Of a stretch of 32,000 nucleotides of DNA, positions 2,248 through 21,560 are shown in pieces. The notes below the pieces were generated by a model. The model saw nothing but the letters and a program-made list of their open reading frames with translations, searched no databases and was not told where the DNA came from. The position numbers and the translations under genes were made by a program. The stretch's first letter is position 1, and every line of letters begins with the position of its first letter. The stretch comes from Methylophaga frappieri (GTDB lineage: Bacteria > Pseudomonadota > Gammaproteobacteria > Nitrosococcales > Methylophagaceae): positions 510,001 through 542,000 of the forward strand of contig NC_017856.1 of assembly GCF_000260965.1 (NCBI RefSeq), written 5' to 3'.

Positions 2248-2253
2248 TCAGCC

Positions 2254-2604
2254 ATGCTGTTACCGTTCAATACCACTATTTGGTTTTACCGGCAGCCGAT
2301 TGACTTTCGTAAACAGATCGATGGCATTGTTATTTTGGTGGCTGATACGCTGCAAAAAAATCCTGTTTCAGGTCAGCTCTTCGTTTTTAGAAATAAAAAG
2401 GCCGACAAATTAAAAATGTTGTATTGGGAGTCGGGTGGTTTTTGGCTGCTATACAAACGTTTTGAAAAAGGGATATTTAAGTTTCCCGGTGTTGTCGACG
2501 AAGCAATGGAGCTGTCCATGCAGCAATTGCAGTGGTTGTTGTCAGGGATTGATTTTACGCAACAAAAACCGCCTGAAAAATGCCAATACACGCGGTTTTA
2601 TTAA
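2254..2604 (+). CDS. tnpB: IS66-family accessory protein TnpB (Orf2)
   Basis: This is a 116-aa ORF. Its core, DFRKQIDGI...SGQLFVFRNKKADKLKMLYWESGGFWLLYKRFEKGIFKFP, matches the conserved IS66 Orf2 signature. Confidence 0.88.
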   Translation: MLLPFNTTIWFYRQPIDFRKQIDGIVILVADTLQKNPVSGQLFVFRNKKADKLKMLYWESGGFWLLYKRFEKGIFKFPGVVDEAMELSMQQLQWLLSGIDFTQQKPPEKCQYTRFY

Positions 2605-2672
2605 CACTATTTTCACTTTTGACTATCAGAATAGTCTATAATAATAGGCATAAAAACACTGTGCAGTCCATC

Positions 2673-4253
2673 ATGACCGACACTGAAAAATCCTTACAGC
2701 ATCAAGTCGACCAGCTAACACTGGAATGCGATTTATTGCGTAAGAAGTGTCAACAATCTGATGATGCCTATGCAGTGTTAATGGATCAGCTGAAACAAAT
2801 GCTACGCCACCGGTTCGGTCAAAAATCAGAGCGCTATATCGATCTCGAAAACCCTCAGCTGTCTTTGTATGGTGAAGTAGTTCTTAATGAAGCGCTGGAT
2901 GAAGAAGATGAAGTCAGCGACAATTCCTGTGACAATGATATTGAGCGCCAGAAAAAACGTCGGGCCAAAAAATCAAGGAATGCCTTTGCTGCACATTTAC
3001 CCCGTACAGAACAGCTAATCCCCGTTGATGCTCACGACAAAACCTGTCAGTGCGGCTGCCCAAAAAAGGTGATTAACCATGAGCGGCATGAACGTTTAAA
3101 TTACCAGCCGCCCGTCTATGAAGTCATTGTCGAACTGCGTGAAGTAGTAGCCTGCCCTAAAGGTTGCGTGGGTGAAGTGATCACAGCCGATAAGCCTAAG
3201 CATATTCTTCCCAAAGCATCCTTTACCGAATCCGTGTTAGCCCACATTATCGTCAGCAAGCTCGATGATCGTCAACCGTACTACCATCTAGAAAAACAGT
3301 TTGAAAAAAGGGCGGGGTTTCGCTTATCTCGCCAAACTATGGCCCGCTCAGTGATTGATTGCAGTGATTCACTACAACCGCTAATCAATTTAATGAAAGA
3401 CGAAGTGATTGACTATGATGTAGGGGCTTTAGACGCCACTACCCTGCAAGTATTAAACGAACCCGGACGATCGGCGTCCACAAAATCCTATGCGTACTGC
3501 TTTAGGGGTGGAGCACCCGGTAAAGACGTCATTCTTTACGAGTACAACGCCATAAAACACAAGCCCTTTGTTAATAATTGGTTTGCGGGTTTTAGTGGTG
3601 GGCTGCATTGTGATGGTGATCCGTTTTTTGATTTATTATTTGAATCTGAGGCGGTAAGCCCCAGTTTCTGTAACACCCACGCTAGACGCAAATTCGAGCC
3701 GATTGCTATCGCGTCAAAAGGGAATGGACTAGCCAAACAGGCGATGCGTTTTTATAAGCGCCTCTACAAAATAGAGCGCAAGGCCAAAGATGAGAAAATG
3801 TCACCAGAGCAACGCTATAGCCTGCGACAACAGTGTTCAAAACCACTGATGGCTGAATTTAAACAATGGCTTGATGAGCATTACCCGACTGTGCCGCCGA
3901 AATCATCGCTGGGTAAAGCTTTTGCCTATACCCTTAAGTTTTGGGATGGCCTGTGTGAATTTCTCAACGATGGTCGCTTAGAAGCGGATAACAATTTGAC
4001 GGAACAGGAAATCAAACCCTTTGTCATTGCCAGAAAGAATTTTATGTTTTGTAGTTCGGTGAAAGGTGCTGAGGCTCTGTGTCTTCATTTTAGTTTGATT
4101 AGAACGGCCAAGCGCCATGGATTAGACCCTTATCGATATTACCAGGAAATCCTAGAAGCGATTCCTCACTGCCAAACGGTGGAAGACTACGAAGCATTGC
4201 TACCCTGGAATATTGCCTTAGAAAAAGTGGGTGCCATCAATCTCGCGGCCTAA
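2673..4253 (+). CDS. tnpC: IS66-family DDE transposase TnpC
   Basis: The ORF track gives 2580..4253. I prefer ATG 2673 (MTDTEKSL...) because the upstream extension overlaps tnpB and is hydrophobic junk. Features read: N-terminal coiled coil, Cys-rich zinc ribbon (CQCGCPKK...ACPKGC), LDDRQPYYHLEKQF...LSRQTMARSV, ALDATTLQVL, GGLHCDG...CNTHARRKFEP and the C-terminal RTAKRHGLDPYRYYQEIL. All are typical of IS66 TnpC. Confidence 0.9.
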   Translation: MTDTEKSLQHQVDQLTLECDLLRKKCQQSDDAYAVLMDQLKQMLRHRFGQKSERYIDLENPQLSLYGEVVLNEALDEEDEVSDNSCDNDIERQKKRRAKKSRNAFAAHLPRTEQLIPVDAHDKTCQCGCPKKVINHERHERLNYQPPVYEVIVELREVVACPKGCVGEVITADKPKHILPKASFTESVLAHIIVSKLDDRQPYYHLEKQFEKRAGFRLSRQTMARSVIDCSDSLQPLINLMKDEVIDYDVGALDATTLQVLNEPGRSASTKSYAYCFRGGAPGKDVILYEYNAIKHKPFVNNWFAGFSGGLHCDGDPFFDLLFESEAVSPSFCNTHARRKFEPIAIASKGNGLAKQAMRFYKRLYKIERKAKDEKMSPEQRYSLRQQCSKPLMAEFKQWLDEHYPTVPPKSSLGKAFAYTLKFWDGLCEFLNDGRLEADNNLTEQEIKPFVIARKNFMFCSSVKGAEALCLHFSLIRTAKRHGLDPYRYYQEILEAIPHCQTVEDYEALLPWNIALEKVGAINLAA

Positions 4254-4407: not shown

Positions 4408-5913
4408 ATGCGTTGTATGATCCAACCAAGGCCGGAAGGGATGTCTGGCGGTGATGTGTTTAGCTATGCCCGACACCGACCAGAGCAAACACTGCTTTAT
4501 CAACTCATCGAGCGCTATTGGCCCGAGTTTCAGTCGCATCTCAGTGAGACAGACCGTTACTTGCCTCGCCATGTCGCACGAGAATTTGATGAGTACCTCG
4601 AATGTGGCAGGCTCGAAAATGGGTTTCTGCGGGTCCGCTGTGAAGACTGCCACCTTGAACACCTGGTAGCTTTTAGCTGTAAACGCCGAGGCTTTTGCCC
4701 CAGCTGTGGAGCAAGGCGAATGGCAGAAACAGCAGCGCTGTTAGTCGATGACGTCTTACCTTACAAACCTATCCGCCAATGGGTACTCAGTTTTCCATAC
4801 CCGCTGCGATTCCTTTTATCCAGCAACCCTCTGGTCATGAGTAAGGTGCTGGGCATTGTTAACCGAGTCATTTCAACGCACTTGATCAAAAAAGCGGGGG
4901 TTAAAGCCACACAAGCACAAACAGGCGCCGTTACTCTGATACAGCGTTTTGGCTCCGCGCTAAATCTCAATGTCCATTTTCATATGCTCTTCATTGACGG
5001 TGCCTACCAAGAAAAACACAACGGCCAATTGAGATTTCACCGAGTAAATGCACCTACAGCCAGCGAACTTAATACTTTAGTCGCTGCCATTAGCCAGCGC
5101 GTTGCAGGTCATTTGGAGCGCCAGGGTTTATTGGTGCGCGATGATGAAAGCAGTTATCTGACACTAGATTTACAAGACGACGATGCGATGCATCAGCTTC
5201 AGGAACACTCCATCACCTATCGAATTGCAGTGGGCCCACAACAAGGCCGCAAGGTCTTCACACTACAGACAATCCCATCCTGGGAAGATGATGATTTTGG
5301 TACAAACCAGGTCGGTAAAATCGCCGGTTTCTCCCTGCATGCTGGGGTGGCAACAAAAACACGAGAACGCAAAAAGCTGGAACGCTTGTGTCGCTATATC
5401 TCCCGCCCGGCGGTATCAGAAAAGCGACTGGCACTGACTTCGCAGGGCAAGGTCAGGTATCAGCTAAAGACGCCCTACAGAGATGGCTCGACGCACGTCA
5501 TCTTCGAGCCGTTAGATTTCATGGCGAAATTGGCAGCCTTAGTGCCGAAGCCACGCGCAAATTTGACGCGGTACCATGGTGTACTGGCCCCTAACAGCAA
5601 GCAGCGTATCTTTGTTACTCCCGCTAAACGTGGCAAGGGCAACACTCAAAAGCAGGGCGTGAAGGACGATGAGCCTGCGCTGGTTGATTGCCATCAAAGC
5701 ATGACGTGGGCCGAGCGGCTTAAGCGCGTATTCAATATTGATGTCACGATCTGTAGCCGCTGTGGTGGTGCAGTGAGGATTATTGCCTGTATCGAGGACC
5801 CGTCGGTCATCAATAAGATTTTAGCTCACCTGGATGCGAAGTCTGGGACGCCCGCCACCGTGAATCAAATACCAGAGCCACGAGCACCGCCACAAGAGAG
5901 CTTGTTCGATTAG
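4408..5913 (+). CDS. IS91-family HUH (Y2) rolling-circle transposase
   Basis: This is a 501-aa ORF. Features read: N-terminal zinc-binding domain (CEDCHLEHLVAFSCKRRGFCPSCGARR), HUH motif (LNLNVHFHMLFIDGAY), C-terminal catalytic Tyr region (LTRYHGVLAPNSKQR), and a terminal CSRCGG zinc ribbon. ATG 4441 is an alternative start. Confidence 0.9.
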   Translation: MRCMIQPRPEGMSGGDVFSYARHRPEQTLLYQLIERYWPEFQSHLSETDRYLPRHVAREFDEYLECGRLENGFLRVRCEDCHLEHLVAFSCKRRGFCPSCGARRMAETAALLVDDVLPYKPIRQWVLSFPYPLRFLLSSNPLVMSKVLGIVNRVISTHLIKKAGVKATQAQTGAVTLIQRFGSALNLNVHFHMLFIDGAYQEKHNGQLRFHRVNAPTASELNTLVAAISQRVAGHLERQGLLVRDDESSYLTLDLQDDDAMHQLQEHSITYRIAVGPQQGRKVFTLQTIPSWEDDDFGTNQVGKIAGFSLHAGVATKTRERKKLERLCRYISRPAVSEKRLALTSQGKVRYQLKTPYRDGSTHVIFEPLDFMAKLAALVPKPRANLTRYHGVLAPNSKQRIFVTPAKRGKGNTQKQGVKDDEPALVDCHQSMTWAERLKRVFNIDVTICSRCGGAVRIIACIEDPSVINKILAHLDAKSGTPATVNQIPEPRAPPQESLFD

Positions 5914-6096
5914 GAAAGCAAGGGAGAGGATGATAGGTGCTGCTCAAGGATGAGGTCGGTAGGATAGGTTGCGTGTCGGAATGCGCAAAACGCTAAAAAG
6001 GCCGGCGCATTATTGATTTGTGCTTAATCATTGTGCAGCTAATGGGTTGATAATAACTTGGCGATTGCTAATAGCCTGTTTTTTATTGTAGATTGG

Positions 6097-6136
6097 GAAG
6101 ATGACGGGGGTATTAAGAAGATGACGGGGGTATTAA
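6097..6136. repeat. Perfect 2 x 20-bp tandem duplication (gaagatgacgggggtattaa) just inside the IS91-like oriIS end
   Basis: Read directly: unit 1 is 6097-6116 and unit 2 is 6117-6136, identical. GGGGTAT in unit 2 pairs with ATACCCC at 6145-6151, giving a potential hairpin. Confidence 0.9.
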
Positions 6137-6142
6137 TCCTAC

Positions 6143-6352
6143 CTATACCCCTGACCCATAACGCTTAGTAATTTGGCGGGAATACTCTAGGTCTTTATCA
6201 CCCTCCAAAACTAAAGAGTCGGCAGAAGCATCTAATTTAAAATTAGGTAGATGGCTTGCCAGCCAACCCAAAATTAATACGGTCACTAGTAGCGTTATTA
6301 ACGGCCTACGCAGGATCATTAGCTCGTACAGTGAAAATAGTTTTTTTGACAT
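6143..6352 (-). pseudogene. N-terminal stub (about 67 codons) of a COG1033/MMPL-type RND exporter, truncated by the IS91-like element
   Basis: From ATG 6352 the sequence is MSKKLFSLYELMILRRPLITLLVTVLILGWLASHLPNFKLDASADSLVLEGDKDLEYSRQITKRYGS. This is TM1 plus the start of the first periplasmic loop of exporters that normally exceed 700 aa. The frame then reads G-V-stop using IS bases (stop at 6143-6145). The base retained at 6151 fits the first base of an Asp codon (RYGSD...). Confidence 0.6.
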
Positions 6353-6451
6353 GGAGAGCATTTCTCTTGTTATTTTTAATAACGACATCTGACTTGAAGC
6401 GAAATACTCAATAGCGATTACGCTGATTAGTATTGCTTGTTGAGACAATAG

Positions 6452-7879
6452 TTACTTATCGTTTAGCGCCTGCAGCAGTTGGCCATGAATACCACCAAAA
6501 CCACCATTACTCATGATAACAATATGATCGCCTGATTTAGCTTCAGCAACGAGGTTAGCCACGATGCTATCAACGGTGTTAAACACTTCTGCTCGGCCAT
6601 CGCTGTCGGCTATGACTTGCTCTAACGACCAATCTAGGCCCTTGGGCTGATACCAAATAACACGATCAGCATCGCAACTAGCGTCGGCCAACAAGGCCAA
6701 GTGAGTCCCTAAACGCATGGTATTTGAACGCGGCTCAATAACTGCGATTAAACGCTGCTCACCAATTTTAGCGCGCTGACCAGCTAAGGTAGTAGCAATG
6801 GCTGTAGGATGATGTGCAAAATCGTCGTAAACACTAATGCCGGCGATCACAGCTAACAGCTCCATTCGGCGCTTAACGCCTTTAAACGTTGAAAGCGCCT
6901 GACAGGCTATATCGGCAGTAACGCCTACATGCCTAGCCGCTGCTATAGCTGATAATGCATTGCTAACATTGTGATTGCCGGTGTGAGACCAATGCACCTC
7001 GCCCTGTTTTTGTTGCTTTAAGAAAATAGCAAAAGCACTGCCATCAGCGCTCAGCAGTTGCGCCGACCAAGTTGTATTCTCTTGGTCAAAGACATCATGA
7101 TGAATATTGGCAGCAGCGTTGTTTAGGGGTTTTTTACAAACAGCATCATCAATCGAACAACGCTCAACTTCTGACCAAAGCCCCTGAGAGAGAACGGTTT
7201 CTAAGTTGTCATTGCTCGCGGGCAACAACACCCTGCCCGTCGAGGGGATAGTGCGCACCAAATGATGAAATTGTTTTTGGATGGCCGCTAAATCTTCAAA
7301 AATATCGGCATGATCAAATTCAAGGTTATTAAGAATCGCGGTGCGCGGTCGGTAGTGCACAAACTTTGAGCGCTTATCAAAAAAAGCGCTGTCATATTCA
7401 TCGGCCTCAATAACAAAAAACGGAGAGTCACCCACCCGTGCCGAAACACCAAAGTCGGCAGGCACACCACCAATTAAAAAACCCGGCGCCATATTGGCGT
7501 CTTCTAGAATCCAGGCAAGCATACTCGAAGTAGTGGTTTTGCCGTGTGTACCGGCAGCTGCGAGCACCCAGCGGTCTTGCAGCAAATGTTCAGATAGCCA
7601 CTGCGGCCCGGAGGTGTATTTAAGGCCTTTATCAAGGATATATTCGACGCAAGGATTACCTCGCGACATGGCATTGCCAACCACAACAAGATCAGGCGCA
7701 GGTTCAAGCTGAATTGGATCAAAGCCCTCAACCAACGTAATGCCCTGCTCTTCTAGCTGGGTACTCATCGGTGGATAAACATTGCTGTCAGAGCCTGTAA
7801 CTTGATGTCCAAGCTGGCGGGCCAAAATAGCTAAGCCGCCCATAAATGTCCCGCAAATACCCAAAATATGGATATGCAT
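6452..7879 (-). CDS. mpl: UDP-N-acetylmuramate:L-alanyl-gamma-D-glutamyl-meso-diaminopimelate ligase (murein peptide ligase)
   Basis: This is a 475-aa ORF. Its N-terminus, MHIHILGICGTFMGGLAILARQLGHQVTGSDSNVYPPMS, is nearly collinear with E. coli Mpl. It has a Mur-ligase P-loop (GTHGKTTT). Confidence 0.93.
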   Translation of the reverse strand: MHIHILGICGTFMGGLAILARQLGHQVTGSDSNVYPPMSTQLEEQGITLVEGFDPIQLEPAPDLVVVGNAMSRGNPCVEYILDKGLKYTSGPQWLSEHLLQDRWVLAAAGTHGKTTTSSMLAWILEDANMAPGFLIGGVPADFGVSARVGDSPFFVIEADEYDSAFFDKRSKFVHYRPRTAILNNLEFDHADIFEDLAAIQKQFHHLVRTIPSTGRVLLPASNDNLETVLSQGLWSEVERCSIDDAVCKKPLNNAAANIHHDVFDQENTTWSAQLLSADGSAFAIFLKQQKQGEVHWSHTGNHNVSNALSAIAAARHVGVTADIACQALSTFKGVKRRMELLAVIAGISVYDDFAHHPTAIATTLAGQRAKIGEQRLIAVIEPRSNTMRLGTHLALLADASCDADRVIWYQPKGLDWSLEQVIADSDGRAEVFNTVDSIVANLVAEAKSGDHIVIMSNGGFGGIHGQLLQALNDK

Positions 7880-8208: not shown

Positions 8209-10305
8209 TTAAAATCCACTTTCTCGAATTAAAACGGCCGCCACACGTTTGAATTGCTTAGGCAGCCATGCGCGGGCTTCACCTTGCACGGTGACATCGG
8301 CTAACCCCATTCGGGTTGAAACCGGCGGTTCGAGTAAACGGATTCTTACCCGAAATAATACCTGCTGCGGTTGGCGTTTATTTTTGCCGTGAACCACCGT
8401 ATTGATCGGCCCACCCGATGCGGCATCGAGCATCGGGTGCGGCAAAAGTGCTAAGGGTGATATATCAACCGATTCGACCACACCGTCAATAAAATATGGC
8501 ACTTGCTCTTTTAATTTAACCCGGGCCTTTGCCCCCACAATCACTCGCGCTATATCGTTTTCGGGCAGGTAGGCTTCGACTATCCAGGCGCTATTATCGG
8601 CGAGCACTGCCAATGGTTGATGTGATTTAACCCATACGCCGTTGGCCAAGTAAGGATCAATATCAAATAACTGGCCGCTAAAACTTGCTGTTAACACCAA
8701 CCGCTGTTGTTCTTGTTGATATAGTCGTGCCTCGGCCAAGTAATGGTCATAGCGAGACATTAAGCCTGTACGCCGCTGCTCGCCGTTACTAACGCCCATT
8801 AAACCATTGAGTTCATGCCACGTATGCTCAGCTAGAGTGCGTGCTTTCATTTCTGAATGCGCGAGATCAGGTGAGCGCAATACGAACAAGGTATCACCTT
8901 GAGTGACCTGATCAGTCGATGGCAATTGCTGCAACTGGCCTGCTAATGGCGAAAATATGATTTGTTGCCGTGCTGAGTGAACCCAGCCGATACTTGAAAT
9001 ACTGGTATGCCAAGGTATCATCGCTATCGCCAGTAAAACGATAAAAAAACCTAACCAACGCTTTTTCTTAATCACACTCATCTCGCTACGTCGCTGCCAC
9101 CAAACGGTCAACTCGGCCAATACCGGTCTGCCAATAAAGACAAAAAGCTCAATAATAAAAAGCGCGATACCTGCCAATTTAAAAAAGAAAAAATACACCA
9201 GCAATGCAATACCGATATAAACAAAAAAACGATAAACCCAGGTGAACAGTGCAAAAATAATCAGCCAAGGCCGCCAGTTTGGTTGCTCAGTGGCTGGCCA
9301 ATCATCTTCAATACCCAGTAATGCACGCCTTAACCAAACCTTAGCCATGGCGGCTGAGCGCTCATGAAGGTTAGGCATATCGAGTATATCAGCCAAAATA
9401 AAATAACCATCAAAGCGCAAAAAAGGGCTTACATTAATCAATAATGTAAGCACCCAACTGGTCGTGGCAAGATAAAACATCGCCTCGCGCACGGCACCAT
9501 TTGGAAGCAAACACCACGCTAGCGTAGCAATGATTGCCAAGCCGAGTTCGGCAATAATGCCCGCACTGGCGATCGCCATTCTCTGCTTAGAGTTTGATAG
9601 CTTCCAGCTTTCACTGGTATCGGTGTAGAGCATTGGGAACATCACCACCATGGCAACCCCCATATGTGCAACACGCACACCATAGCGAGTAGCCGTATAA
9701 GCGTGCGCTAGCTCGTGCAGCGCTTTAGCGATAACAAGGGCAATAGCAAAACCAACTAGGCTATCAAAACCCAGTTGATTTATTAGCGTTGCACTAAAAG
9801 TATCCCACTGACGACTAATTAAATAGCCGCCTAAAACAGCGAAAAAAACCAAACTAACCAACATCGCTTTTGAATAGAGCCAAGCAACATAAGGGTAGCT
9901 ATTTTTGAGTAAGCGTTGCGGCTTAATTAGCGGTATACGAAAAAAAAGATAGTGCTGCAACAACCACTGAAAGGTATTTTTTTTCTGCTGCTGTGCTCGC
10001 TGCTGCAAAGCATTAGCGGTTTTAGAGTTGCTGGCTTGAAGCAAATTATGCTGTTGTAAGAAAACAATTAAACTTTCAATATCAGCTTCGTCAACATGGA
10101 GTGCTGTCTGTTGGTTAATAGCGGCGATTATCGCCTCGGCTGGGCCTGTATTCCATCGAACTAGCAACTCAAAATCTAACCAGCCAATTCGATAAAAACG
10201 ATTAATAACTGGGTCTACTATCATCCATGCCGGCGAACCATCACTATTGGCCGCAGCGGGTAATAATTTTAGTTCTTCGCGCAACGCAGGCAGGTTTTCA
10301 ATCAC
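8209..10305 (-). CDS. Site-2-protease (peptidase M50) membrane domain fused to a C-terminal HlyD/membrane-fusion-protein-like periplasmic domain
   Basis: This is a 698-aa ORF. HELAH lies at aa 197-201 (nt 9703-9717) and the second S2P motif NVSPFLRFDG at aa 291-300 (nt 9406-9435). Multiple hydrophobic helices are present. The C-terminal third (SPLAGQLQQL...GDTLFVLRSPDL...coiled segment...AYLPENDIARV.VGAKARV) looks like an adaptor lipoyl/beta-barrel. Its start overlaps the upstream gene's stop by 4 nt (ATGA). Confidence 0.85.
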   Translation of the reverse strand: MIENLPALREELKLLPAAANSDGSPAWMIVDPVINRFYRIGWLDFELLVRWNTGPAEAIIAAINQQTALHVDEADIESLIVFLQQHNLLQASNSKTANALQQRAQQQKKNTFQWLLQHYLFFRIPLIKPQRLLKNSYPYVAWLYSKAMLVSLVFFAVLGGYLISRQWDTFSATLINQLGFDSLVGFAIALVIAKALHELAHAYTATRYGVRVAHMGVAMVVMFPMLYTDTSESWKLSNSKQRMAIASAGIIAELGLAIIATLAWCLLPNGAVREAMFYLATTSWVLTLLINVSPFLRFDGYFILADILDMPNLHERSAAMAKVWLRRALLGIEDDWPATEQPNWRPWLIIFALFTWVYRFFVYIGIALLVYFFFFKLAGIALFIIELFVFIGRPVLAELTVWWQRRSEMSVIKKKRWLGFFIVLLAIAMIPWHTSISSIGWVHSARQQIIFSPLAGQLQQLPSTDQVTQGDTLFVLRSPDLAHSEMKARTLAEHTWHELNGLMGVSNGEQRRTGLMSRYDHYLAEARLYQQEQQRLVLTASFSGQLFDIDPYLANGVWVKSHQPLAVLADNSAWIVEAYLPENDIARVIVGAKARVKLKEQVPYFIDGVVESVDISPLALLPHPMLDAASGGPINTVVHGKNKRQPQQVLFRVRIRLLEPPVSTRMGLADVTVQGEARAWLPKQFKRVAAVLIRESGF

Positions 10306-11726
10306 AACCCAGTGAACTCACGCACCGCAGCAATAGGCCGACGAAATAAATAATATCCCAATACTGTCCAGTCTGATGAAATCCGTGCTGTACCGCGAAG
10401 CCCCAAACGTGGCAAGTCTTTGCGCTCACTAAAATGACCAAATAGCGTATAAGCCGAAATACCTTCTGGGCTTTGGCTAGCCTGATAACTGGTCTGCAAT
10501 AAACTGGCATCTAAAGGTGATAAGGGCTGGGTATGCAAAAAGACGCGAATAGGAGCGCCGATATCTAAATTAATCGCATCGGCCACCGGTAGCCAAATTT
10601 CGATGCCCGCATCTTCGGCACTAGCCAACTGCATAATACGCTCACCAATTTGAACCGGCCGACCGATCCAGTCATTTTTGTCGGCAAAAATAGCTAAACC
10701 TTTACGATCAGCTTTTACCGTGACTCTCTGCAACAACAATTCAACAGCGCCAAGCTCGGCCTCTTTCTCTCTGACCCTGCCCAGCGCTGATGCCAATTCA
10801 GCTTTGCTGCTGTAATCATTAAACGCTTGTTGTTCAGCAACTAATGCATCGGCTCTTGCAATGACTAGGGCTTTTAGCGCGATATTTCTTCGGCTTTGTA
10901 AAGCGCTGTCATCCAGTGAAAATAGCGCATCGCCTACCTCAACTTCGGCATTAGGCTGCACATGAATTTTGCCAATAACACCATCTATAGGTGAAGCTAC
11001 GGCTTTGGCATTTAAGGCCACGACCTCGGCCGGGGCCAGTACCGATAAACGGATAGGGATAAACAACGCTAACACCATAGCCAATACAACCCAACGCAAA
11101 CGCCCAGATTGAATAAACTGACGCAGCTTGCGAGCTAGGTTATTTTCACGTTTGTTCATCGCGCGATAACAGTAAGCATAACAATCGTGTAAACGATGCA
11201 ATAAATCTAAATCTAATGGCGACCAAGTTTGCTCTCTAGCATACAGCACTAGCATGGCAACATTCTCATCAACATCGAGCACAGGGATAATCAGCAAATG
11301 TTCCGGTAACCACTCCAACCAGCCCGTCTGCAGATCTTCTCTGATGGATTCACTTTTAACCAACATAGATTGCGCTTGGTGATTGCTAATGTCTAAACTG
11401 GCAATCAACGACTGCAGCCAAATTGAAAAAGGGGAGTCTTCAACAATATTGGCTAAACCCGACGCCTGTCGCAGGCTAAATTGACCACTGATATTTTTGT
11501 CCATAATCAGTGACTGCCGAAACGGCGTAAGCATGTGAGTTTCATTTGCAATCACAAAGCATAATGCTTGGTTATCTTGCGCCGCCAAAGCGCGCTTTTC
11601 GAGATGTAACAAAACCGACAACTGAGTATGCTCGGCATTTTTTTTAGCTGTCGTGCGTGGGGGAGGCACAGGCTGATGAGTAGCGGCTTGTTTTTTTTCG
11701 GCTACTGGGGGTTTATTTGTATTCAT
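10302..11726 (-). CDS. HlyD-family periplasmic adaptor with a roughly 200-aa cytoplasmic N-terminal (GAF-like) domain and one TM anchor
   Basis: This is a 474-aa ORF. It has a TM segment (RLRWVVLAMVLALFIPIRLSVL, about aa 209-230), then ASPIDGVIGKIHVQPNAEVEVGDALFSLD (lipoyl-like), a coiled-coil hairpin, and GERIMQLASAEDAGIEIWLPVADA. All are typical of MFP/HlyD proteins. Confidence 0.85.
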   Translation of the reverse strand: MNTNKPPVAEKKQAATHQPVPPPRTTAKKNAEHTQLSVLLHLEKRALAAQDNQALCFVIANETHMLTPFRQSLIMDKNISGQFSLRQASGLANIVEDSPFSIWLQSLIASLDISNHQAQSMLVKSESIREDLQTGWLEWLPEHLLIIPVLDVDENVAMLVLYAREQTWSPLDLDLLHRLHDCYAYCYRAMNKRENNLARKLRQFIQSGRLRWVVLAMVLALFIPIRLSVLAPAEVVALNAKAVASPIDGVIGKIHVQPNAEVEVGDALFSLDDSALQSRRNIALKALVIARADALVAEQQAFNDYSSKAELASALGRVREKEAELGAVELLLQRVTVKADRKGLAIFADKNDWIGRPVQIGERIMQLASAEDAGIEIWLPVADAINLDIGAPIRVFLHTQPLSPLDASLLQTSYQASQSPEGISAYTLFGHFSERKDLPRLGLRGTARISSDWTVLGYYLFRRPIAAVREFTGL

Positions 11727-11795
11727 AAAAATAACTTTTTAGAAGCGCCACTGAGCAATCAATATAAGCCAAGATTAATATTATGCTTGGGGTAA

Positions 11796-12608
11796 TCACT
11801 CAGCGTTTAGATCAGCAAGCATTGCGGTACCACTCATGCCGGCTAGTAAGCCAGGATAATCCTCAATCATCCGACCTTCGATTTCAATTGTTTGGCTAAC
11901 CGAGTCAATACGGCTGTTGATAGCCACTATTCTAGCTCGGTAACGCTTGCCGGTTTCGTCGATGGTGACATTGAACAAATCGCCAACCTGCAGGGAGTTT
12001 ATTTTTTTTGAAGGTACATTAAGGCGGATTTTTAAGCGGCCATCCTTCACCAGTTCTAACAGCGGCTCCCCTGCCGCCACACTCATGTGGTTACTTACAA
12101 AGACTTTTGAAACCCTACCTCGCCAAGGTGATTTGACTTCGCAGTTTTTTATTTGCACGGCACTCAGCGCTAATTGCGCCCGTAATCTAGCGACTTCACT
12201 GGCTGCCAAAGCGACCTCGATGCTACTCGCCTGTTTTAAACCTTGCATTTTCACTTTGCCTTCGTGTGACTCTAGGGCCCCTGCCAACTCGGCCTGCACC
12301 ATATTGTTGCGAGCTATGGGCTCTTCACATGAAAATTTTAGCAGTAGTTTATCTTTATCGAACGAAGAACCCAACGAAACATTAAGCTGATTAATTTTAG
12401 CGGCCACCGAACTCGACAACACCGTTTCTTTTTCAGGTGCCAATAAAACTCTTATGGCAGCATGCCGATAATCAGTTTGCCGGGTCTGGCTGGTACTAGG
12501 GTAGTTATGAAGGGTTTGTAAAGCGGTTTTCCCAGCGAACTGGGCTTGTGCAAGTTGGGCGGTGAGCCCAACAAGCACTATTAAAAAACAACAAGAACGG
12601 TGTGTCAT
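11796..12608 (-). CDS. Short periplasmic adaptor (MFP/HlyD-like) with a cleavable signal peptide
   Basis: This is a 270-aa ORF. It has a signal-like N-terminus (MTHRSCCFLIVLVGLTAQLAQAQ). SSSVAAKINQLNVSLGSSFDKDKLLLKF and VKSPWRGRVSKVFVSNHMSVAAGEPLLEL are lipoyl half-motifs flanking a coiled coil. Its ATG directly follows the TAA of the TolC-like gene (12606-12611). Confidence 0.8.
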   Translation of the reverse strand: MTHRSCCFLIVLVGLTAQLAQAQFAGKTALQTLHNYPSTSQTRQTDYRHAAIRVLLAPEKETVLSSSVAAKINQLNVSLGSSFDKDKLLLKFSCEEPIARNNMVQAELAGALESHEGKVKMQGLKQASSIEVALAASEVARLRAQLALSAVQIKNCEVKSPWRGRVSKVFVSNHMSVAAGEPLLELVKDGRLKIRLNVPSKKINSLQVGDLFNVTIDETGKRYRARIVAINSRIDSVSQTIEIEGRMIEDYPGLLAGMSGTAMLADLNAE

Positions 12609-14513
12609 TTACATCTCCAACGGTTGAGCAGTAGGTAGCGATTGCGATAACCAGTTACGTGTTGACGATAAGCTAGCTGAAGCTGCAGCCAATAAACTTG
12701 CTTCATAAGTCGAAGCACGCGCATTTTGTGGCAAGGTCGTTTCATACTCCATGCTGTTGGATACTTCTTTGCTATCCATGGTTACTAACCATAAAGCTTT
12801 TTGCAAACCATTAGCATCGTTACGACTCAAACTAAACGTCAGTGGCGTCCCTGATGCTTGATTGACCTTAATATCATTTCTCTCGAGCATAGTGACCAAC
12901 TGCTCGGTCATGCTGTTTTTTAATACAGGGTCATCAATGCCTTGCACGCGAATGCTAACATCAGCTTGATGGCCAAATAGGTGCGACTTTAGGCTGAAAG
13001 AATTATTTTGCAACTGAGCCTGGTGTTCACTAATCAGTTCAGTCAATTGAGCCAAGTCTAAACCCTCGCCATCGTAGGGAAGTGGATCAAAACCTAATGT
13101 GTTATACAAACGACCAAAAGCAATTTGCAAATTAGCGTAAGCATTAGCACGTTGATAGTCACCTAACAGTGCTTTGGCTTCTGTTCGAATAACTTCAAGT
13201 TCGCTATCCATTTTTGAGCTTAACGCATCGCGAGCATATTGTGATAAACGATGATCAACCCCTGCGGCTTTATCGGCCAAATTAAATTCACTGGCTGCTA
13301 AACGGTAGCGCTCTATCGAAATGCGTACCTGAGTTAAAATCGCCATTGACAGTGCCATGCGGCGCGCAGTATCAGCTTTCTCTTGCTCTTCGCGAGAATC
13401 ATTCAACGAGGGGATGCTGGCTAATTTCATTAAATTCCACGACAACGAAATACCGCCCTGTGACCATTCATTGTTATAGAGGTATTTATTAGAGTCTTGA
13501 AAAAATCCGTAATTAAAGTTTATTGCAGGGAATAAACTTAAGATTTGTTTACGCGTTTCGTCAGCAGTAATGCGTTTTCTAAAATCTTCTTCACGTAATT
13601 CAGGGCGCTGTAATAACGCCATTTCTTCTAGTTGATTAATGTTGTCGGGGGCTGCTGGCAGTGCATGCTCTTTAGTATCAGCCAAACTAAAAGTAACGCC
13701 AGAGGGCACGTTCATTAAAGCGGCCAGCTCACTTTTTGCGTAGGCTAAATCTTGGCGACGCTTATTGAGCATGTAGGCAGCATCTAATAATGCGCGCTGA
13801 TAATTCAGTGCCGTTACAGGAGCAATAATTTGCTGCGACTCTGCTTCACGTGATTGTTCAAGCGCTCGGTCAATTCGCTCAATAGTGGCATTCACCTGCT
13901 GCTCTAAACGTTGCGCCCCTAGCGCACGCCAATACGATGCGCGAACATCTTGAAATAAACCTTGAACTACTTTTCTGCGGCGCTCTTCAGCAATTAAATA
14001 CTGATCGGCTTGTTGCCTTGCCCGATAATAAGAAACACCAAAGTCTAAACTATTCCAGCTGAATTCAATATTTTCAGTATGGTAGCTTTTCTCTTGCGAT
14101 GAAGAAGGACGCAGCGACTCTAGGCCATCTTCAATACCATAACTGGAGCCACCCGAATCATTATTGCGCCGACTATAACCTGCCGATGCCAAAACACGCG
14201 GCAGCATATCGAATTTTGATAGCTCATTTAAACCCAGAGCCAAGGCCGACTCCATATTTTTTAATCGATAATCCAAGTTATATTTCAACGCTCTAGCTAG
14301 TGCCTCGTCTAAAGTTATAGGCGCACTAATAGCCACTTGGTTCTCAAACATTTGCGCTGTATCGGCCGCTACTCTATCGCGAACTTCATCCTGCGTTGCC
14401 AACTGAGGCGAAACGGAGCACCCTCCCAAGACAAGGCAAAAGATCGGCGCATTAAAACGCCAAGCACGGGTTGCTGTCCCAGTAAAAAACAGTTTATTTA
14501 AAAGGGCTTTCAT
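12609..14513 (-). CDS. TolC/OprM-family outer-membrane factor (lipoprotein) with a C-terminal extension of about 150 aa
   Basis: This is a 634-aa ORF. A lipobox-like LVLGGCS lies near the N-terminus. Two OEP-type repeats with long coiled segments are present (LDEALARALKYNLDYR..., ...LLQRPELRE...). GGAG lies about 10 nt upstream of the ATG. The tail (about aa 485-634) goes beyond the usual OMF fold. Confidence 0.85.
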   Translation of the reverse strand: MKALLNKLFFTGTATRAWRFNAPIFCLVLGGCSVSPQLATQDEVRDRVAADTAQMFENQVAISAPITLDEALARALKYNLDYRLKNMESALALGLNELSKFDMLPRVLASAGYSRRNNDSGGSSYGIEDGLESLRPSSSQEKSYHTENIEFSWNSLDFGVSYYRARQQADQYLIAEERRRKVVQGLFQDVRASYWRALGAQRLEQQVNATIERIDRALEQSREAESQQIIAPVTALNYQRALLDAAYMLNKRRQDLAYAKSELAALMNVPSGVTFSLADTKEHALPAAPDNINQLEEMALLQRPELREEDFRKRITADETRKQILSLFPAINFNYGFFQDSNKYLYNNEWSQGGISLSWNLMKLASIPSLNDSREEQEKADTARRMALSMAILTQVRISIERYRLAASEFNLADKAAGVDHRLSQYARDALSSKMDSELEVIRTEAKALLGDYQRANAYANLQIAFGRLYNTLGFDPLPYDGEGLDLAQLTELISEHQAQLQNNSFSLKSHLFGHQADVSIRVQGIDDPVLKNSMTEQLVTMLERNDIKVNQASGTPLTFSLSRNDANGLQKALWLVTMDSKEVSNSMEYETTLPQNARASTYEASLLAAASASLSSTRNWLSQSLPTAQPLEM

Positions 14514-14589
14514 TACACACTTACTCCAAATTCACTGTTAATTATTATAAAAATAGTCATTACATTGTAACCATACAAACCAATACCGC

Positions 14590-17298
14590 TTAGGCTTTTT
14601 TGTAGTAGCTAATGGTATTTTCTGAACCGCTAGCCAACCTCGATGCTGCTGACTGTTTGAGCTGCTCACTAAAGCTACTCGCAGCGGTAATTTTTTCATC
14701 GCCTTGATCACCACCAAGCGCAATAACGATATCGGTATTGGCGATGTCTAAAACACTCGGTGAACTTTCAGCTGTTATTGTGCCCTGCAGCTCGATGGTG
14801 TCATCGTTAACTTGCTCGCTGCTGCTATTAGCCGCTATTTTTGTGGCCGATAATTCTGGTTTAGCAAAAGGGTCAAGTAAATGTTTAACGCCGGGCGATG
14901 CTGAATTAAATGAATCAACCAGACCATTGCGCGCCGCAGATTCAAGCTGCGATTGATTAACGGCTAACTGCACAAAAACAGCATGCGATGTAGGTAACGG
15001 AATTTGTCGGACTGACTGCTGCACATAAAGTGCGTTGTCGGGATAGCGATCAATACCCAGCGGAGAAAAGTCCTTGCCGCCTAATTCGCCTAAGCCATTA
15101 TCACCAGAGGCAAACGCTAGGCCGATATCTAAACCACCGAGTAGCTCTTTATAAGCAACAGAATCAATATCTAACAAATTCAAACCAGAGCTGAGTTGGA
15201 TTTCATTTCTGGCTTGTTGAACGCTCAATAACACATGCAGCGCAGGGTCAACCGGACGAATAGGGACTGTAAATACAGGTCTAAAGTTACCGTAATCACG
15301 AAATTCTCCATCCACCCGAGGCGCGGGTGTAATGTCAATTGAAACGGTTGCCGAAGCCGTACCACCTTGGCCGTCACTGATTTCATACTCAAAACTAAAG
15401 TCGCCAATAAAACCAAGGTCAGGGTAAAAAGTGATTACACCACTGGCGCTGATAACCACTTCACCATTAGGCACAGACAATGTTTGTGCCTGGCCTGCAA
15501 TGACCGGCTGGCCGGCAATACTAGAAACAACAAGCGTGTCGCCATCAACATCGGTGTCATTATCCAGTAAATTCAGCACAACACCGGCTGCACCGGCTGC
15601 ACCATCAACGCTATAGCTATCATCAGTTGCCACAGGGTTATCGTTGACAGGCAGTACTGTTATCGTAACCGTTGCTGTTTCAGTGATGCCATTAACAGTC
15701 GCCGTATAAGTGAAGCTATCGATGCCTTCAAAATTAACATCAGGCGTATAAGTAAAGGTACCATTTGGGTTTAACACCACGGTGCCATTTTGAGCTTGGG
15801 TAAACACTGAAACGGTGGCGACACCTTCAAAATTATCATTAGCCAGCACATCAAGCGTGACCGGCTGTTCTTCATTAGTGGTAGTAGCATCATCACTAAT
15901 ATCAACAACAGGTAGTACCGTTAGAGACAGCGAAGACACATGCGTTTCAATGCCATCAGTGATTTCAACACCGATAGCAATCGGCCCCGATGCAGAAGTA
16001 TTAAAATCGTCCGTGGGCGTGTAATCAACGGCTAATAAAGCCGCATTGATTTGAGCGGATGTACCCGTAATAACAACCGTATTAGTGCCGTTATCAGTAA
16101 TGGTTGCACCGCCCCCCGCGATCACATTAATAACACCAGCATTAGCAGGCAACGTTAACGTGGTGGTAAGGATCGCGTTGTCAGCATCCTGCACAGCAAT
16201 ACCATTGATCGTAAGGGGAGTATCTTCGGTTGCGATTTGCGGCGCAGGTAACGTACTCACTGCAATATCATTGAGGCCGGTGACAGTAATAGTGACCGTC
16301 ACCGGTGCACTTACACCGCCGTTGTTATCACTGGTTGTGTAAGTGAAGGTAACGTCACGGCTGCCACCCGGTGCCAAATCATCAAAATCGCCAGTCGGGT
16401 CAAAACTATAAGTACCATCTGGGTTGAATGTCAGAACACCTTCACCCACATTAGTCACTAATGCAAAACCATTAGGGTCAATGGTGCCGTCGATATCACT
16501 GCCAGCAGGCACGGCAGCATTAAGGACGGTGTCTTCGTCGGTAGTCTGAGCATCGCTAGCGGCAACCGGGTTATCATTTGTACCGTTAATGGTGATTTCT
16601 ATCGTGGTCGGCGTACCATCTACCGTGGTGACGTTAAATACTTCATTTATCGAGTCACCGACATCTAAACTGTCAAACGCGCTATTAGCCGTAAAAGTCC
16701 AAGCACCTGCAGCATTTAAAACTAGCTCGCCAGTGGGGCGTGTAATCGTCACTGGTGTAAACGTGTTGTCTGGACTATCAGGATCGGTGCTGGTGAGAGT
16801 GCCAGTAAAGACTAAGGGCGCATCGGTTTCGTCTAAGCTAACATCGGCGCTACTCACGGTTGCCGCATCATTAACCGGCGTTACTTCAACCGTGGTGTTC
16901 ACCACCGTTGAGGTCTGCTGACCATTGGCTGCAGCCTCTGAATTTTCATCGCGCACTGTCCAATTGATGGTGCGGTCTGCACTGCCCGGATTATCTGAGC
17001 TTGAGCTGTAATTCACAGTGCGCAATAACGATTGATATTCAGCTTTGGTGGCATTGCCGCTAATGGTGAGCGTGCCGGGCACCGAACTGTCTACCGTTAA
17101 ACCCAGTGAAGTTGCCAGTGCTGCATCCAGCGCTAATGTATCACCCGCTGAGAAACCGCTGGCTATGGTAATCACCGCTTGGTTTAAGTCAGCATCATCA
17201 ACATCGGCCAAGCTCAACGCGGGCTCTAATACCAACGCCGGATCATTTTCTATATAGGTGTGCGTGGTAGCTACACCGCTGACCACTGGGGTGGTCAT
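14590..17298 (-). CDS. Giant adhesin, fragment 5 (C-terminal 902 aa): end of the array, VCBS/cadherin-like modules, and a unique 242-aa non-RTX tail
   Basis: It continues the repeat (TPVVSGVATTHTYIEND...), followed by VNDAATV..., TNDNPVA..., LNDIAV... and VNDNPVATDD... modules. The tail runs from RVDGEFRDYGNF... to ...ISYYKKA. Confidence 0.85.
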   Translation of the reverse strand: MTTPVVSGVATTHTYIENDPALVLEPALSLADVDDADLNQAVITIASGFSAGDTLALDAALATSLGLTVDSSVPGTLTISGNATKAEYQSLLRTVNYSSSSDNPGSADRTINWTVRDENSEAAANGQQTSTVVNTTVEVTPVNDAATVSSADVSLDETDAPLVFTGTLTSTDPDSPDNTFTPVTITRPTGELVLNAAGAWTFTANSAFDSLDVGDSINEVFNVTTVDGTPTTIEITINGTNDNPVAASDAQTTDEDTVLNAAVPAGSDIDGTIDPNGFALVTNVGEGVLTFNPDGTYSFDPTGDFDDLAPGGSRDVTFTYTTSDNNGGVSAPVTVTITVTGLNDIAVSTLPAPQIATEDTPLTINGIAVQDADNAILTTTLTLPANAGVINVIAGGGATITDNGTNTVVITGTSAQINAALLAVDYTPTDDFNTSASGPIAIGVEITDGIETHVSSLSLTVLPVVDISDDATTTNEEQPVTLDVLANDNFEGVATVSVFTQAQNGTVVLNPNGTFTYTPDVNFEGIDSFTYTATVNGITETATVTITVLPVNDNPVATDDSYSVDGAAGAAGVVLNLLDNDTDVDGDTLVVSSIAGQPVIAGQAQTLSVPNGEVVISASGVITFYPDLGFIGDFSFEYEISDGQGGTASATVSIDITPAPRVDGEFRDYGNFRPVFTVPIRPVDPALHVLLSVQQARNEIQLSSGLNLLDIDSVAYKELLGGLDIGLAFASGDNGLGELGGKDFSPLGIDRYPDNALYVQQSVRQIPLPTSHAVFVQLAVNQSQLESAARNGLVDSFNSASPGVKHLLDPFAKPELSATKIAANSSSEQVNDDTIELQGTITAESSPSVLDIANTDIVIALGGDQGDEKITAASSFSEQLKQSAASRLASGSENTISYYKKA

Positions 17299-18247
17299 TG
17301 ACAGGGTTAACCGCCGTGGCGATGTTGATACTATCGGCCGACCAGGTTTCGGTCGTGCCTAGATTGCCAGAAATATCTTGGCCCGAGGCCTCCGCTTGCA
17401 CGCTGTCGGCAAGGTGCACCGTTAGTGCTCCCGGCGTGCCACTGTATTCTGCCACCGGTAAAAAACGAATATCGGCGGTGGCGGGCAGCACTAGAGCATT
17501 GCCCGATGACAAGCCTACGTTGGTGATCGTCACCCAGCCTGAACCACTGTTGTATTGCCAGCTACCTTCTGTCGCTGGATTAGCTGCGTTGCCAATAATC
17601 GCTATACCGCCAAGCGCTGTAGCGCTAGAGCCGCCAGCAACGGTATCGGTGCTGTCATCGTATTGTGAGCTGGTGATTACACTGCTCAGTGCAGCACCGG
17701 CTGGGTTGGTGTTGTCTTCATTAATCGACGCGAGTGTACCGCTGCCACTGGCAACCGGCGCATCGTTAACCGCAGTAATAGCCGTCCCTAAGGTAACGGC
17801 ATTGGCCGCATTAGAGAATGCGGTTGTGCCACCCGTGGCACCACCACTCAAATCAGCTCCCGCACCTGTAGCTACTGCACCACTAGAGCTATCGATTAAG
17901 CGCACGGTTAAATCACCCGGTGTGCCGTTCCAATCGGGTTGCGCTAAAAAGCGAACCTGATCGGTACTCGATAGTAAAAACGGATTCGCTAAACTGGCTG
18001 TCGCAGGGATAGCTAACCAGCCGCCACCACTGTTGTACTGCCACACACCTTGCGCGGCGGTCGCGGCATTATCAACAATCGCCACGCCAGCAAGGGTATT
18101 AGCCGTCGAGCCATTAGGTGACGGTATCGGTGCTGTCATCAAACCTTGGCCCAAAGATATTGCTGACCGTATCGCCCACCGGGTTTGCAGTGTCTTCTGG
18201 AACAGCCGGTAAACTGGTGCTCGCCGCTGTGCGCAGCGGTGCATCAT
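17243..18247 (-). CDS. Giant adhesin, fragment 4 (frameshifted piece of repeat copy 1)
   Basis: From aa 46 or so, the 334-aa ORF is the repeat sequence (NGSTANTLAGVAIVDN...). Its N-terminal about 45 aa (MMHRCAQRRAP...) is out-of-frame read-through. Confidence 0.6.
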   Translation of the reverse strand: MMHRCAQRRAPVYRLFQKTLQTRWAIRSAISLGQGLMTAPIPSPNGSTANTLAGVAIVDNAATAAQGVWQYNSGGGWLAIPATASLANPFLLSSTDQVRFLAQPDWNGTPGDLTVRLIDSSSGAVATGAGADLSGGATGGTTAFSNAANAVTLGTAITAVNDAPVASGSGTLASINEDNTNPAGAALSSVITSSQYDDSTDTVAGGSSATALGGIAIIGNAANPATEGSWQYNSGSGWVTITNVGLSSGNALVLPATADIRFLPVAEYSGTPGALTVHLADSVQAEASGQDISGNLGTTETWSADSINIATAVNPVNDHPSGQRCSYHAHLYRK

Positions 18248-21457: not shown

Positions 21458-21560
21458 GGTTAGATCACCCGGTGTGCCGTTCCAATCGGGTTGCGCTAAA
21501 GCGAACCTGATCGGTACTCGATAGTAAAAACGGACTCGCTAAACTGGCTGTCGCAGATAG

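Follow-up and report, generated by a model that had tools for sequence, protein, structure and literature searches.

A 32,000-nt stretch of the Methylophaga frappieri genome (NCBI RefSeq assembly GCF_000260965.1, contig NC_017856.1, positions 510,001 to 542,000 of the forward strand) was analysed at its full length; we refer to it as the window and count positions from its first letter. On its minus strand the window carries a giant adhesin-like gene and, directly downstream, a cassette of four closely packed genes encoding a TolC-family outer-membrane factor (OMF), two adaptor proteins and a fusion of an M50-type metalloprotease with a further adaptor domain. It is very probable, in our assessment, that this cassette serves the neighbouring giant protein as a dedicated machine for secretion and processing, with no ATP-binding cassette (ABC) engine in cis. 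The features of the locus are given below from high to low coordinates, each with the evidence for it; open reading frames are abbreviated ORFs, periplasmic adaptor proteins PAPs and AlphaFold2 models AF2.

14590–28856, minus strand: giant adhesin-like gene of ~4,750 codons, the presumed substrate (ORFs, Pfam)
21561–28856, 20975–21457, 18114–21008, 17243–18247 and 14590–17298, minus strand: ORFs of the split giant gene
28752–28790, minus strand: LEPR motif LALEPRIVFDAAL, aa 23–35, with a basic stretch before it (NCBIfam NF012209, 15.1 bits against a cut-off of 17)
28167–28616, minus strand: DUF4347, aa 81–230 of the N-terminal ORF (Pfam, 9.8e-50, 168.9 bits)
16341–23438, minus strand: four tandem copies of ~1776 nt, which carry frame-breaking indels
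14659–14676, minus strand: C-terminal motif SFSEQL, 22 aa from the C-terminus (consensus A-[PAS]-[SGA]-F-S-[EA]-Q-L-[RK])
14514–14589, minus strand: 76-nt spacer that separates the giant gene from the OMF gene, with a sigma-70-like match inside
12609–14513, minus strand: 634-aa TolC-family OMF, a lipoprotein (Pfam OEP, lipobox)
11796–12608, minus strand: 270-aa soluble PAP with a Sec signal peptide (Pfam, NCBIfam, sequence)
10302–11726, minus strand: 474-aa inner-membrane-anchored adaptor (ORF, Pfam, AF2, Foldseek)
aa ~26–200 of the 474-aa adaptor: predicted GAF-like cytoplasmic domain (AF2, Foldseek, paralogues)
aa ~209–232 of the 474-aa adaptor: predicted single transmembrane helix, with the periplasmic PAP domain after it (AF2)
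8209–10305, minus strand: 698-aa PqqD-like/M50/adaptor fusion (ORF, Pfam, AF2, homologues)
~10036–10278, minus strand: aa ~10–90 of the fusion, predicted cytoplasmic PqqD-like peptide-recognition domain (paralogue, AF2 fold)
aa ~120–430 of the fusion: M50 (site-2-protease-type) polytopic metalloprotease (Pfam, motifs, AF2)
9703–9717, minus strand: HELAH motif, aa 197–201 of the fusion (sequence)
aa 291–300 of the fusion: NVSPFLRFDG motif (sequence)
aa ~435–698 of the fusion: periplasmic adaptor (PAP/HlyD) domain (Pfam, Foldseek)

A first-pass annotation, made from the letters of the sequence, had already placed the minus-strand cassette 76 nt past the giant stop at 14590, and its gene order and ORF coordinates hold. 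No nucleotide intervenes between the OMF gene and the 270-aa gene, the TAA of the former being followed at once by the ATG of the latter, as that annotation had noted, but the overlap that it gave as ATGA at 10302–10305 reads GTGA, the TGA stop of the 474-aa gene being overlapped by a GTG start of the fusion gene. Within the 76-nt spacer a sigma-70-like sequence, GTTACA-16-TATAAT, runs from 14571 to 14544; it is a consensus match only, and the region has no more sites of this kind than shuffled sequences do. Profile searches returned the domain identities proposed for the four proteins, namely OEP, three HlyD-type domains and Peptidase_M50 (Pfam). No resistance-nodulation-division (RND), major facilitator superfamily (MFS) or ABC pump is present in the cassette. 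The absence of an ABC ATPase, another point of the annotation, was likewise found when ORFs of at least 80 aa were scanned across the 32 kb: the sole Walker A motif is in Mpl (7558), and there are zero ABC signatures.

The 698-aa fusion matches Peptidase_M50 (PF02163) with 37.4 bits against a cut-off of 27.2, and in addition HlyD_3 and HlyD_D23. In the AF2 model, which has a mean predicted local distance difference test (pLDDT) score of 75.8, an N-terminal beta3-alpha3 unit (aa 13–85, with strands at 13–17, 26–31 and 36–40 and helices at 42–49, 56–66 and 73–85) precedes a helical, membrane-like domain at aa ~120–430 and a C-terminal alpha-hairpin adaptor, and Foldseek matches this C-terminal part to MacA, MexA, ZneB and EmrA. 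The M50 part's closest relatives among curated families are leader peptidases of RiPPs (peptides that are ribosomally synthesised and post-translationally modified), with daptide MpaP nearest. Against the NCBIfam model daptide_HExxH (NF041824, daptide MpaP) the fusion scores 170.6 bits (5.5e-50), under the cut-off of 300, and against YydH/LiaK (NF058609) 43 bits (4e-11), under the cut-off of 225. Across 28 homologues HExxH and NxxPxxxxDG show no variation (H197, E198, H201, N291, P294, D299 and G300), which suggests that the protease should be active. As to the N-terminal unit, a Rhizobium paralogue of the same architecture, 25% identical to the window protein, matches PqqD (PF05402) over aa 37–101 with 28.9 bits against a cut-off of 23.4. 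When the window fusion family was aligned to this paralogue with hhalign, the alignment extended over columns 12–646, N-terminal domain included, at 100% probability. Because of the paralogue's PqqD match and the hhalign alignment, we read the fusion as tripartite, with a predicted PqqD-like RiPP recognition element (RRE) followed by the M50 protease and then the adaptor.

The other two adaptors are of different build. The 474-aa protein, which would be 439 aa long if started at Met36 as in the public annotation, matches HlyD_3 and Biotin_lipoyl_2 in Pfam, and over 439 aa it has 100% identity to a Methylophaga frappieri protein (P0121). Its N-terminal alpha/beta domain is modelled with a pLDDT of 85–92, and Foldseek searches with the protein gave PAPs and also a GAF-containing chain, 6oap_B, at 7e-6. 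Adaptors paralogous to it match Pfam GAF (PF01590) above threshold; in an hhalign comparison of the 474-aa family with these paralogues, only the last strand and helix of the GAF-like domain were aligned. The 270-aa adaptor matches HlyD_3 (3.2e-14) and HlyD_D23, has a Sec signal peptide (…LAQA/QF) and reaches 82.7 bits with the NCBIfam model RND_mfp, under the cut-off of 94.9. All three adaptor-type proteins fall far under the cut-off of TIGR01843 (type_I_hlyD). The OMF matches OEP in two stretches (1.5e-29) and has the lipobox LVLGGC. Its C-terminal extension of ~150 aa (12609–13100, aa ~480–634) has no family match, and the C-terminal 294 aa give the OEP tail alone. This extension is common to the OMFs of related cassettes in E. 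coli, Caenimonas and locus L001 of the survey described below (634–639 aa), and many other cassettes have OMFs of ~510–530 aa that are without it.

The giant gene was described in the first-pass annotation as an adhesin-like gene with LEPR and DUF4347 segments and no repeats-in-toxin (RTX) sequences. Pfam agrees on this: the body contains Cadherin_3, Cadherin_4, Cadherin_5, Big_9 and VCBS repeats, and HemolysinCabind (RTX) has no match in the giant protein. The protein has no Sec-type signal peptide. Its LEPR segment falls just under the cut-off of the LEPR-XLL model NF012209 (E 0.013), and the Cupriavidus orthologue, with 18.8 bits, is above it. At the other end, SFSEQL lies inside a conserved C-terminal region of ~200 aa that is common to the giants of loci L001 and L005. 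In the assembly the gene is split into five ORFs, and the breaks lie within the four tandem copies. The three inner copies are 99.5–100% identical, and the four have a G+C content of ~0.53–0.55 vs ~0.45 in the surroundings. All the breaks are changes in homopolymer length, located at 21501 (T5 to T3), 21018 (T6 to T5) and 17294 (a C-run). The indels of one copy total -6, so that the frame is restored. The simplest reading is that the breaks are probably due to sequencing or assembly error; alternatively, gene decay or slipped-strand switching may be behind them. The orthologue in Alkalimarinus alittae is intact, encodes 3,728 aa and has the same four neighbours as the giant gene of the window.

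Homologues of the fusion are numerous. A word-indexed search gave more than 3,500 matches, and at E <= 1e-30 the family comprises 3,089 clusters at 50% identity, nearly all of them ~700 aa long. We surveyed 88 non-redundant loci amounting to 1.24 Mb and 37–100% identity, which were drawn from plasmids, metagenome contigs and individual look-ups and belong to Alpha-, Beta- and Gammaproteobacteria. The carriers include Methylophaga, Alkalimarinus and plasmids of E. coli, Citrobacter and Kosakonia among the Gammaproteobacteria, Caenimonas, Gallionellaceae, Cupriavidus CH34 and Eleftheria among the Betaproteobacteria, and an Azospirillum plasmid among the Alphaproteobacteria. The four-gene order is not a matter of chance: essentially all related loci whose upstream DNA is long enough show it, with the genes at fixed distances. 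Given sufficient DNA, the gene for the 474-type adaptor is found 1.3 to 1.4 kb upstream of the fusion gene, that for the 270-type adaptor 2.0 to 2.3 kb upstream and the OMF gene 3.6 to 4.3 kb upstream, all on the same strand. In almost every locus with an OMF gene and DNA upstream of it, the end of a long ORF lies 3–532 nt upstream of the OMF gene, and this ORF usually stays open as far as the edge of the contig. Linkage to the giant gene is kept in loci with altered gene order (L010, L053, L062, L064 and L066): the giant gene of Eleftheria lies within the operon, and in L053, L062, L064 and L066 it lies downstream of the fusion gene.

The first-pass annotation had asked whether orthologous loci routinely contain an ABC exporter, and whether the module is usually linked to small-peptide genes. 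Counting as ABC-like any ORF with a Walker A motif and an ABC signature at proper spacing, we found three in the 1.24 Mb, none of them inside an operon. The gene-neighbourhood survey links the module to giant repeat proteins and not to small-peptide genes; RiPP genes are present neither in the window nor in the loci, and no small precursor or modification genes are conserved beside the cassette. In E. coli the cassette forms a five-gene island, flanked by insertion sequences (ISs), on plasmids of incompatibility group F (IncF). Of 5,426 complete E. coli genomes, 24 contain it (22 with 80% or more of the four-gene query), and plasmids account for 21 of the 25 places matched. The five genes move together as one unit. 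A dedicated and undescribed export or processing route for the giant protein, as the first-pass annotation had suggested, is supported by the ABC-less orthologues, by the linkage to giants and by the persistence of this linkage despite reordering.

Two terminal motifs recur in the giants. The LEPR motif, [A/S]-LE-x-R-x-[LMV]-[FY]-D-[GA]-A (ALEPRxxFDAA) after a basic stretch, is present in all 11 complete giant N-termini of the window clade, ten of which were found with a regular expression and one (Cupriavidus) by eye; over the 1.24 Mb, the regular expression matched no ORF other than giants. The C-terminal motif (APSFSEQLR) is found 10–39 aa from the end in 48 of 55 giant tails, compared with 11 of 610 background ORF tails. 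The repeat cores of the giants are otherwise unrelated, being immunoglobulin-like, VCBS or cadherin, and the termini are therefore what the giants beside these cassettes have in common. DUF4347 alone is not diagnostic, since two short DUF4347-only proteins without the LEPR part, from Thiorhodovibrio frisius (L102) and a Magnetococcales metagenome-assembled genome (MAG; L103), have no cassette in their vicinity. RTX repeats are present in some of the database's DUF4347 fragments. The extended signal peptide region (ESPR) is a feature of autotransporters and two-partner secretion proteins. A partial LEPR/DUF4347 protein from Hydrogenophaga sp. (P0282) has an ESPR-like start (MNKTYKSIWNEALGTYVAAAEV / MNKTYKSIWNEALGTYVAAAEVASS), followed by a basic stretch, MALEPRIVFDAALPA and then DUF4347, such that the LEPR segment stands at the place of the signal-peptide h-region. 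This extension hints at a Sec-related start.

Deeper relatives of the cassette contain an ATPase gene. Fusion homologues that are 24–28% identical over the full length are encoded in Rhizobium, Mesorhizobium, Sinorhizobium and Pseudohalocynthiibacter (Rhizobiales, Rhodobacterales), together with LEPR-tagged giants of ~8,800–10,500 aa. The gene set of these relatives comprises DUF3467, an adaptor, a GAF-adaptor, the PqqD-M50-adaptor fusion and a SecA-like ATPase. One such sister-clade cassette, beside LEPR giants of ~10,000 aa, occupies positions 6535–13889 of L098 (Mesorhizobium ciceri plasmid NZ_CP088148), and others are in L093/L095, L094 and L097. The giant N-termini of the deep relatives carry LEPR (EALEPRLLLSAD, ESLEPRLLLSAD, DTLEPRVLLNAD and NDLEPRVLFSAT), and their C-termini differ from APSFSEQLR. 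The SecA-like gene is directly downstream of the fusion gene in Mesorhizobium, Rhizobium and Pseudohalocynthiibacter, and in Sinorhizobium one gene stands between the two; in plasmid pA of Sinorhizobium chiapasense (L097) a 273-aa ORF at 14014–14835, starting MAAQLLFYQDVHPVS, occupies this place. The SecA-like protein matches solved SecA structures at 4e-137 over residues 13–603, with the C-terminal part absent, and is labelled by NCBI as 'DEAD/DEAH box helicase' or 'hypothetical' in the sister clade. SecA paralogues of this type are encoded on at least 12 plasmids of Alphaproteobacteria, and an accessory SecA tied to adaptors in Proteobacteria is in itself unusual. As for DUF3467, no sequence relative was found in the PDB, and a SecB-like role for it is a guess.

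Fuller versions combine the ATPase and the channel. In plasmid pMSC49a of Methylosinus sp. C49 (L104, 1–15995) a cassette with SecA-like, TolC/OEP, M50-adaptor and two adaptor genes lies beside a LEPR giant; the last genes of the cassette are those for an adaptor and TolC, and its SecA-like gene is mis-named 'prepilin peptidase'. In a Pirellulaceae MAG (L101, 97–10743) the order OEP, SecA-like, adaptor, adaptor, M50-adaptor is found, divergent from a gene with both LEPR and DUF4347. Between the SecA-like proteins of the planctomycete and of rhizobia the identity is 40%, and the ATPase is therefore an old part of the machine. In relatives whose cassette includes an ATPase, this is SecA-like and never ABC. 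The description of the window cassette as 'ATPase-less' in the first-pass annotation is thus correct in cis, but is probably untrue of the whole machine, given that deep relatives encode a SecA-like ATPase.

Taken as a whole, we think it rather probable that the cassette is a TolC-dependent secretion and processing machine for LEPR-tagged giants, which in the window clade would be served by a SecA-type motor in trans. The giant protein would be the cargo, bearing an N-terminal leader (basic stretch plus ALEPRxxFDAA) and the C-terminal APSFSEQLR motif as putative signals. RiPP recognition elements bind leader peptides. The PqqD-like domain of the fusion may, as a tentative step, bind one of the two terminal motifs, most likely the LEPR leader, which is favoured because it is the sole motif common to the substrates of all clades. 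The fused M50 intramembrane metalloprotease could then cut the leader at the membrane, a step that we propose with similar reserve. The soluble 270-aa adaptor, the GAF-anchored 474-aa adaptor and the C-terminal part of the fusion would form a periplasmic duct, of an adaptor stoichiometry that we infer, to the TolC-like lipoprotein, through which the repeat protein would exit; the GAF-like domain would provide a cytoplasmic regulatory input. The motor may be a SecA-type ATPase, given that the deep-branching cassettes have a SecA paralogue of their own along with a DUF3467 protein; the window clade would presumably borrow the housekeeping SecA. This, too, is put forward tentatively. The rhizobial clade would presumably use the housekeeping TolC.

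A number of points weigh against this reading. The PqqD assignment for the window protein leans on a paralogue and a predicted fold, and a search of aa 1–145 of the fusion gave no Pfam match to PqqD even at E <= 10. In direct Pfam searches of the N-terminal domains the best matches were only sCache_4 at 0.04 and GAF_2 at 0.088, the latter being the sub-threshold match of the 474-aa adaptor. The identity of the cargo leans on gene linkage and motifs, and the giant gene is interrupted in this assembly. The use of SecA in the window clade would be an extrapolation from deep relatives: no SecA-like or DUF3467 gene is present in the 88 window-clade loci, with no SecA-like gene within 10 kb. An ABC exporter or an accessory SecA may be encoded elsewhere in the Methylophaga genome, as the negative results cover the 32-kb window. 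M50 enzymes normally cut membrane-embedded helices, and in a hydrophobicity scan the LEPR segment is only weakly hydrophobic. Finally, as in type I systems, the signal that truly directs secretion may be the clade-conserved C-terminal motif, and LEPR/DUF4347 may then be a retention or release module.

Three other explanations were considered. In a classical type I secretion system (T1SS) with its ABC transporter encoded elsewhere, the M50 fusion would be a mere accessory leader peptidase or adaptor. An OMF and HlyD-type adaptors beside a giant repeat adhesin are the standard T1SS layout, and the substrates have a conserved motif near the C-terminus. We nevertheless consider it unlikely, as 0 of the 88 loci have an ABC gene in the operon and the ATPase that relatives add is of the SecA type. 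Moreover, the unit of five genes travels by itself, both on the IS-flanked plasmid islands of E. coli and on small plasmids, and the substrates lack RTX repeats. A small probability is also given to the module being a retention, release or quality-control device comparable to LapG/LapD for LapA, in which M50 would clip the LEPR/DUF4347 end, GAF would sense a nucleotide and some other route would translocate the protein. The LEPR/DUF4347 N-terminus is positioned like the N-terminal retention module of LapA-type adhesins; the invariant protease motifs and the GAF-like sensor domain on the anchored adaptor are in keeping with such a device as well. However, a TolC-type channel and three adaptor modules are kept with the protease at fixed spacing, a pattern that speaks for a conduit and not just for an enzyme of processing. 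None of the loci has another exporter linked to it, and relatives add a SecA-like translocation ATPase to the cassette.

Efflux of a peptide (RiPP or bacteriocin) or of a small molecule, with the giant gene adjacent by coincidence, is very improbable. It would suit the RiPP leader peptidases as nearest curated M50 relatives, the PqqD-like RRE in the fusion, and the scores of the adaptors with RND/MFS adaptor models. Yet conserved precursor and modification genes are missing beside the cassette, as is any RND, MFS or ABC pump, a giant gene is present in essentially all loci in any gene order, and giants with unrelated cores share two terminal motifs that a regular-expression scan of the loci matched in hardly any further ORF. 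None of the three explanations fits the synteny and the SecA finding as well as a dedicated secretion and processing machine for the giant protein.

Genes flanking the cassette are unrelated to it: mpl, a 101-aa gene fragment and IS91- and IS66-family elements at one side, and SpoVR at the other. The 101-aa ORF (6143–6448, minus strand) follows mpl, has a hydrophobic N-terminus, and was apparently cut off by the IS91-family (Y2_Tnp) element, after which comes the IS66-family element (TnpB_IS66 and DDE_Tnp_IS66); the stretches 4408–5913 and 1942–4253 adjoin the ORF. It has no Pfam or NCBIfam match and is absent beside the cassette in other loci, and its N-terminus resembles the start of an RND/MMPL-type exporter. 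On two unrelated plasmids, tandem genes for 'tail fiber proteins' of ~225 aa (phage-tail-collar type) are located beside the cassette, at 17140–19247 in the Kosakonia cowanii plasmid (L009) and at 4997–6856 in Azospirillum Az39 p2 (L008). The Kosakonia proteins were considered as extra cargo and ruled out by their ordinary Sec signal peptides and the lack of a LEPR motif.

TolC-dependent protein secretion is defined in textbooks by its ABC engine. With T1SSs such as LapA/LapBCE and HlyA/HlyBD-TolC the locus shares a TolC-family OMF and HlyD-type adaptors by a giant adhesin, tight coupling of the genes, and an adhesin without a Sec signal peptide but with a conserved C-terminal element. It differs in having three adaptor-type modules instead of one, an inner-membrane component made of an M50 protease and a PqqD-like domain, a substrate with an N-terminal LEPR motif and no RTX repeats, and relatives that use a SecA-like ATPase. 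The cassette has no ABC transporter and therefore falls outside type I as defined. As to LapA-type control, Pfam detected no domains of the BTLCP protease LapG or the c-di-GMP receptor LapD in the window ORFs scanned, which were most of those of at least 80 aa. Peptidase-containing ABC transporters with a C39 domain (PCATs; CvaAB-TolC) likewise have a leader peptidase fused to an export apparatus that works with an adaptor and TolC. Here, however, an intramembrane M50 metalloprotease takes the place of the C39 cysteine protease, its fusion partner is an adaptor and not an ABC pump, and the presumed cargo is thousands of residues long. The M50 leader peptidases of RiPP systems (daptide MpaP, YydH/LiaK) have in common with the fusion HExxH, NxxPxxxxDG and a PqqD-type element, but the cassette protein is far under the family cut-offs, includes a periplasmic adaptor and is encoded in linkage with TolC and giants, without RiPP genes.

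SecA2 systems (the Gram-positive accessory Sec system and the mycobacterial one) resemble the deep relatives in having a shortened, dedicated SecA paralogue and a very large adhesin-like substrate. They differ in that the window clade has no SecA paralogue in cis and that SecY2 and Asp genes are absent, and to our knowledge the combination of a SecA-like ATPase with TolC, adaptors and an M50 protease does not occur among SecA2 systems. With the tripartite efflux pumps AcrAB-TolC, MacAB-TolC and EmrAB-TolC the cassette shares adaptor folds that match MacA, MexA, ZneB and EmrA as well as a lipoprotein-type OMF, but it lacks an RND, ABC or MFS pump, and its adaptors have cytoplasmic PqqD-like and GAF-like domains. 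The cassette is best described as belonging to the trans-envelope assemblies that depend on TolC, its inner-membrane component being of a new kind. In the full-text literature, a coverage that leaves subscription journals outside, no description was found of the fusion, of a function for LEPR-XLL/DUF4347 or of the set of SecA-like ATPase, TolC and adaptors.

A broader proposal, which we hold tentatively, is that LEPR-XLL is the sorting signal of an unrecognised, widespread secretion system for giant proteins, consisting of a SecA-type ATPase (dedicated or housekeeping), the RRE-M50-adaptor fusion as leader peptidase, two adaptors, one of them GAF-regulated, and a TolC-type channel, which would bring proteins of several thousand residues from the cytoplasm to the surface with no ABC transporter. 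If LEPR-XLL is such a signal, the window cassette would be a version without its own motor, and the IncF plasmids of E. coli would carry a tractable copy. A large family would then keep TolC and the adaptors and swap the engine for a fusion of peptide-recognition, intramembrane-protease and adaptor domains, with fuller versions adding a SecA paralogue. The reach of this family, at ~3,000 clusters at 50% identity, extends over Alpha-, Beta- and Gammaproteobacteria and a planctomycete. If true, this would assign a role to the LEPR-XLL tag that many of the largest bacterial proteins bear at the N-terminus, tie protein secretion to leader recognition of the RiPP type, and explain the route to the surface for giant adhesins that have neither RTX repeats nor signal peptides. 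As the cassette is present on plasmids of E. coli and Citrobacter from clinical and wastewater isolates, it is directly testable, and it is possibly relevant to colonisation.

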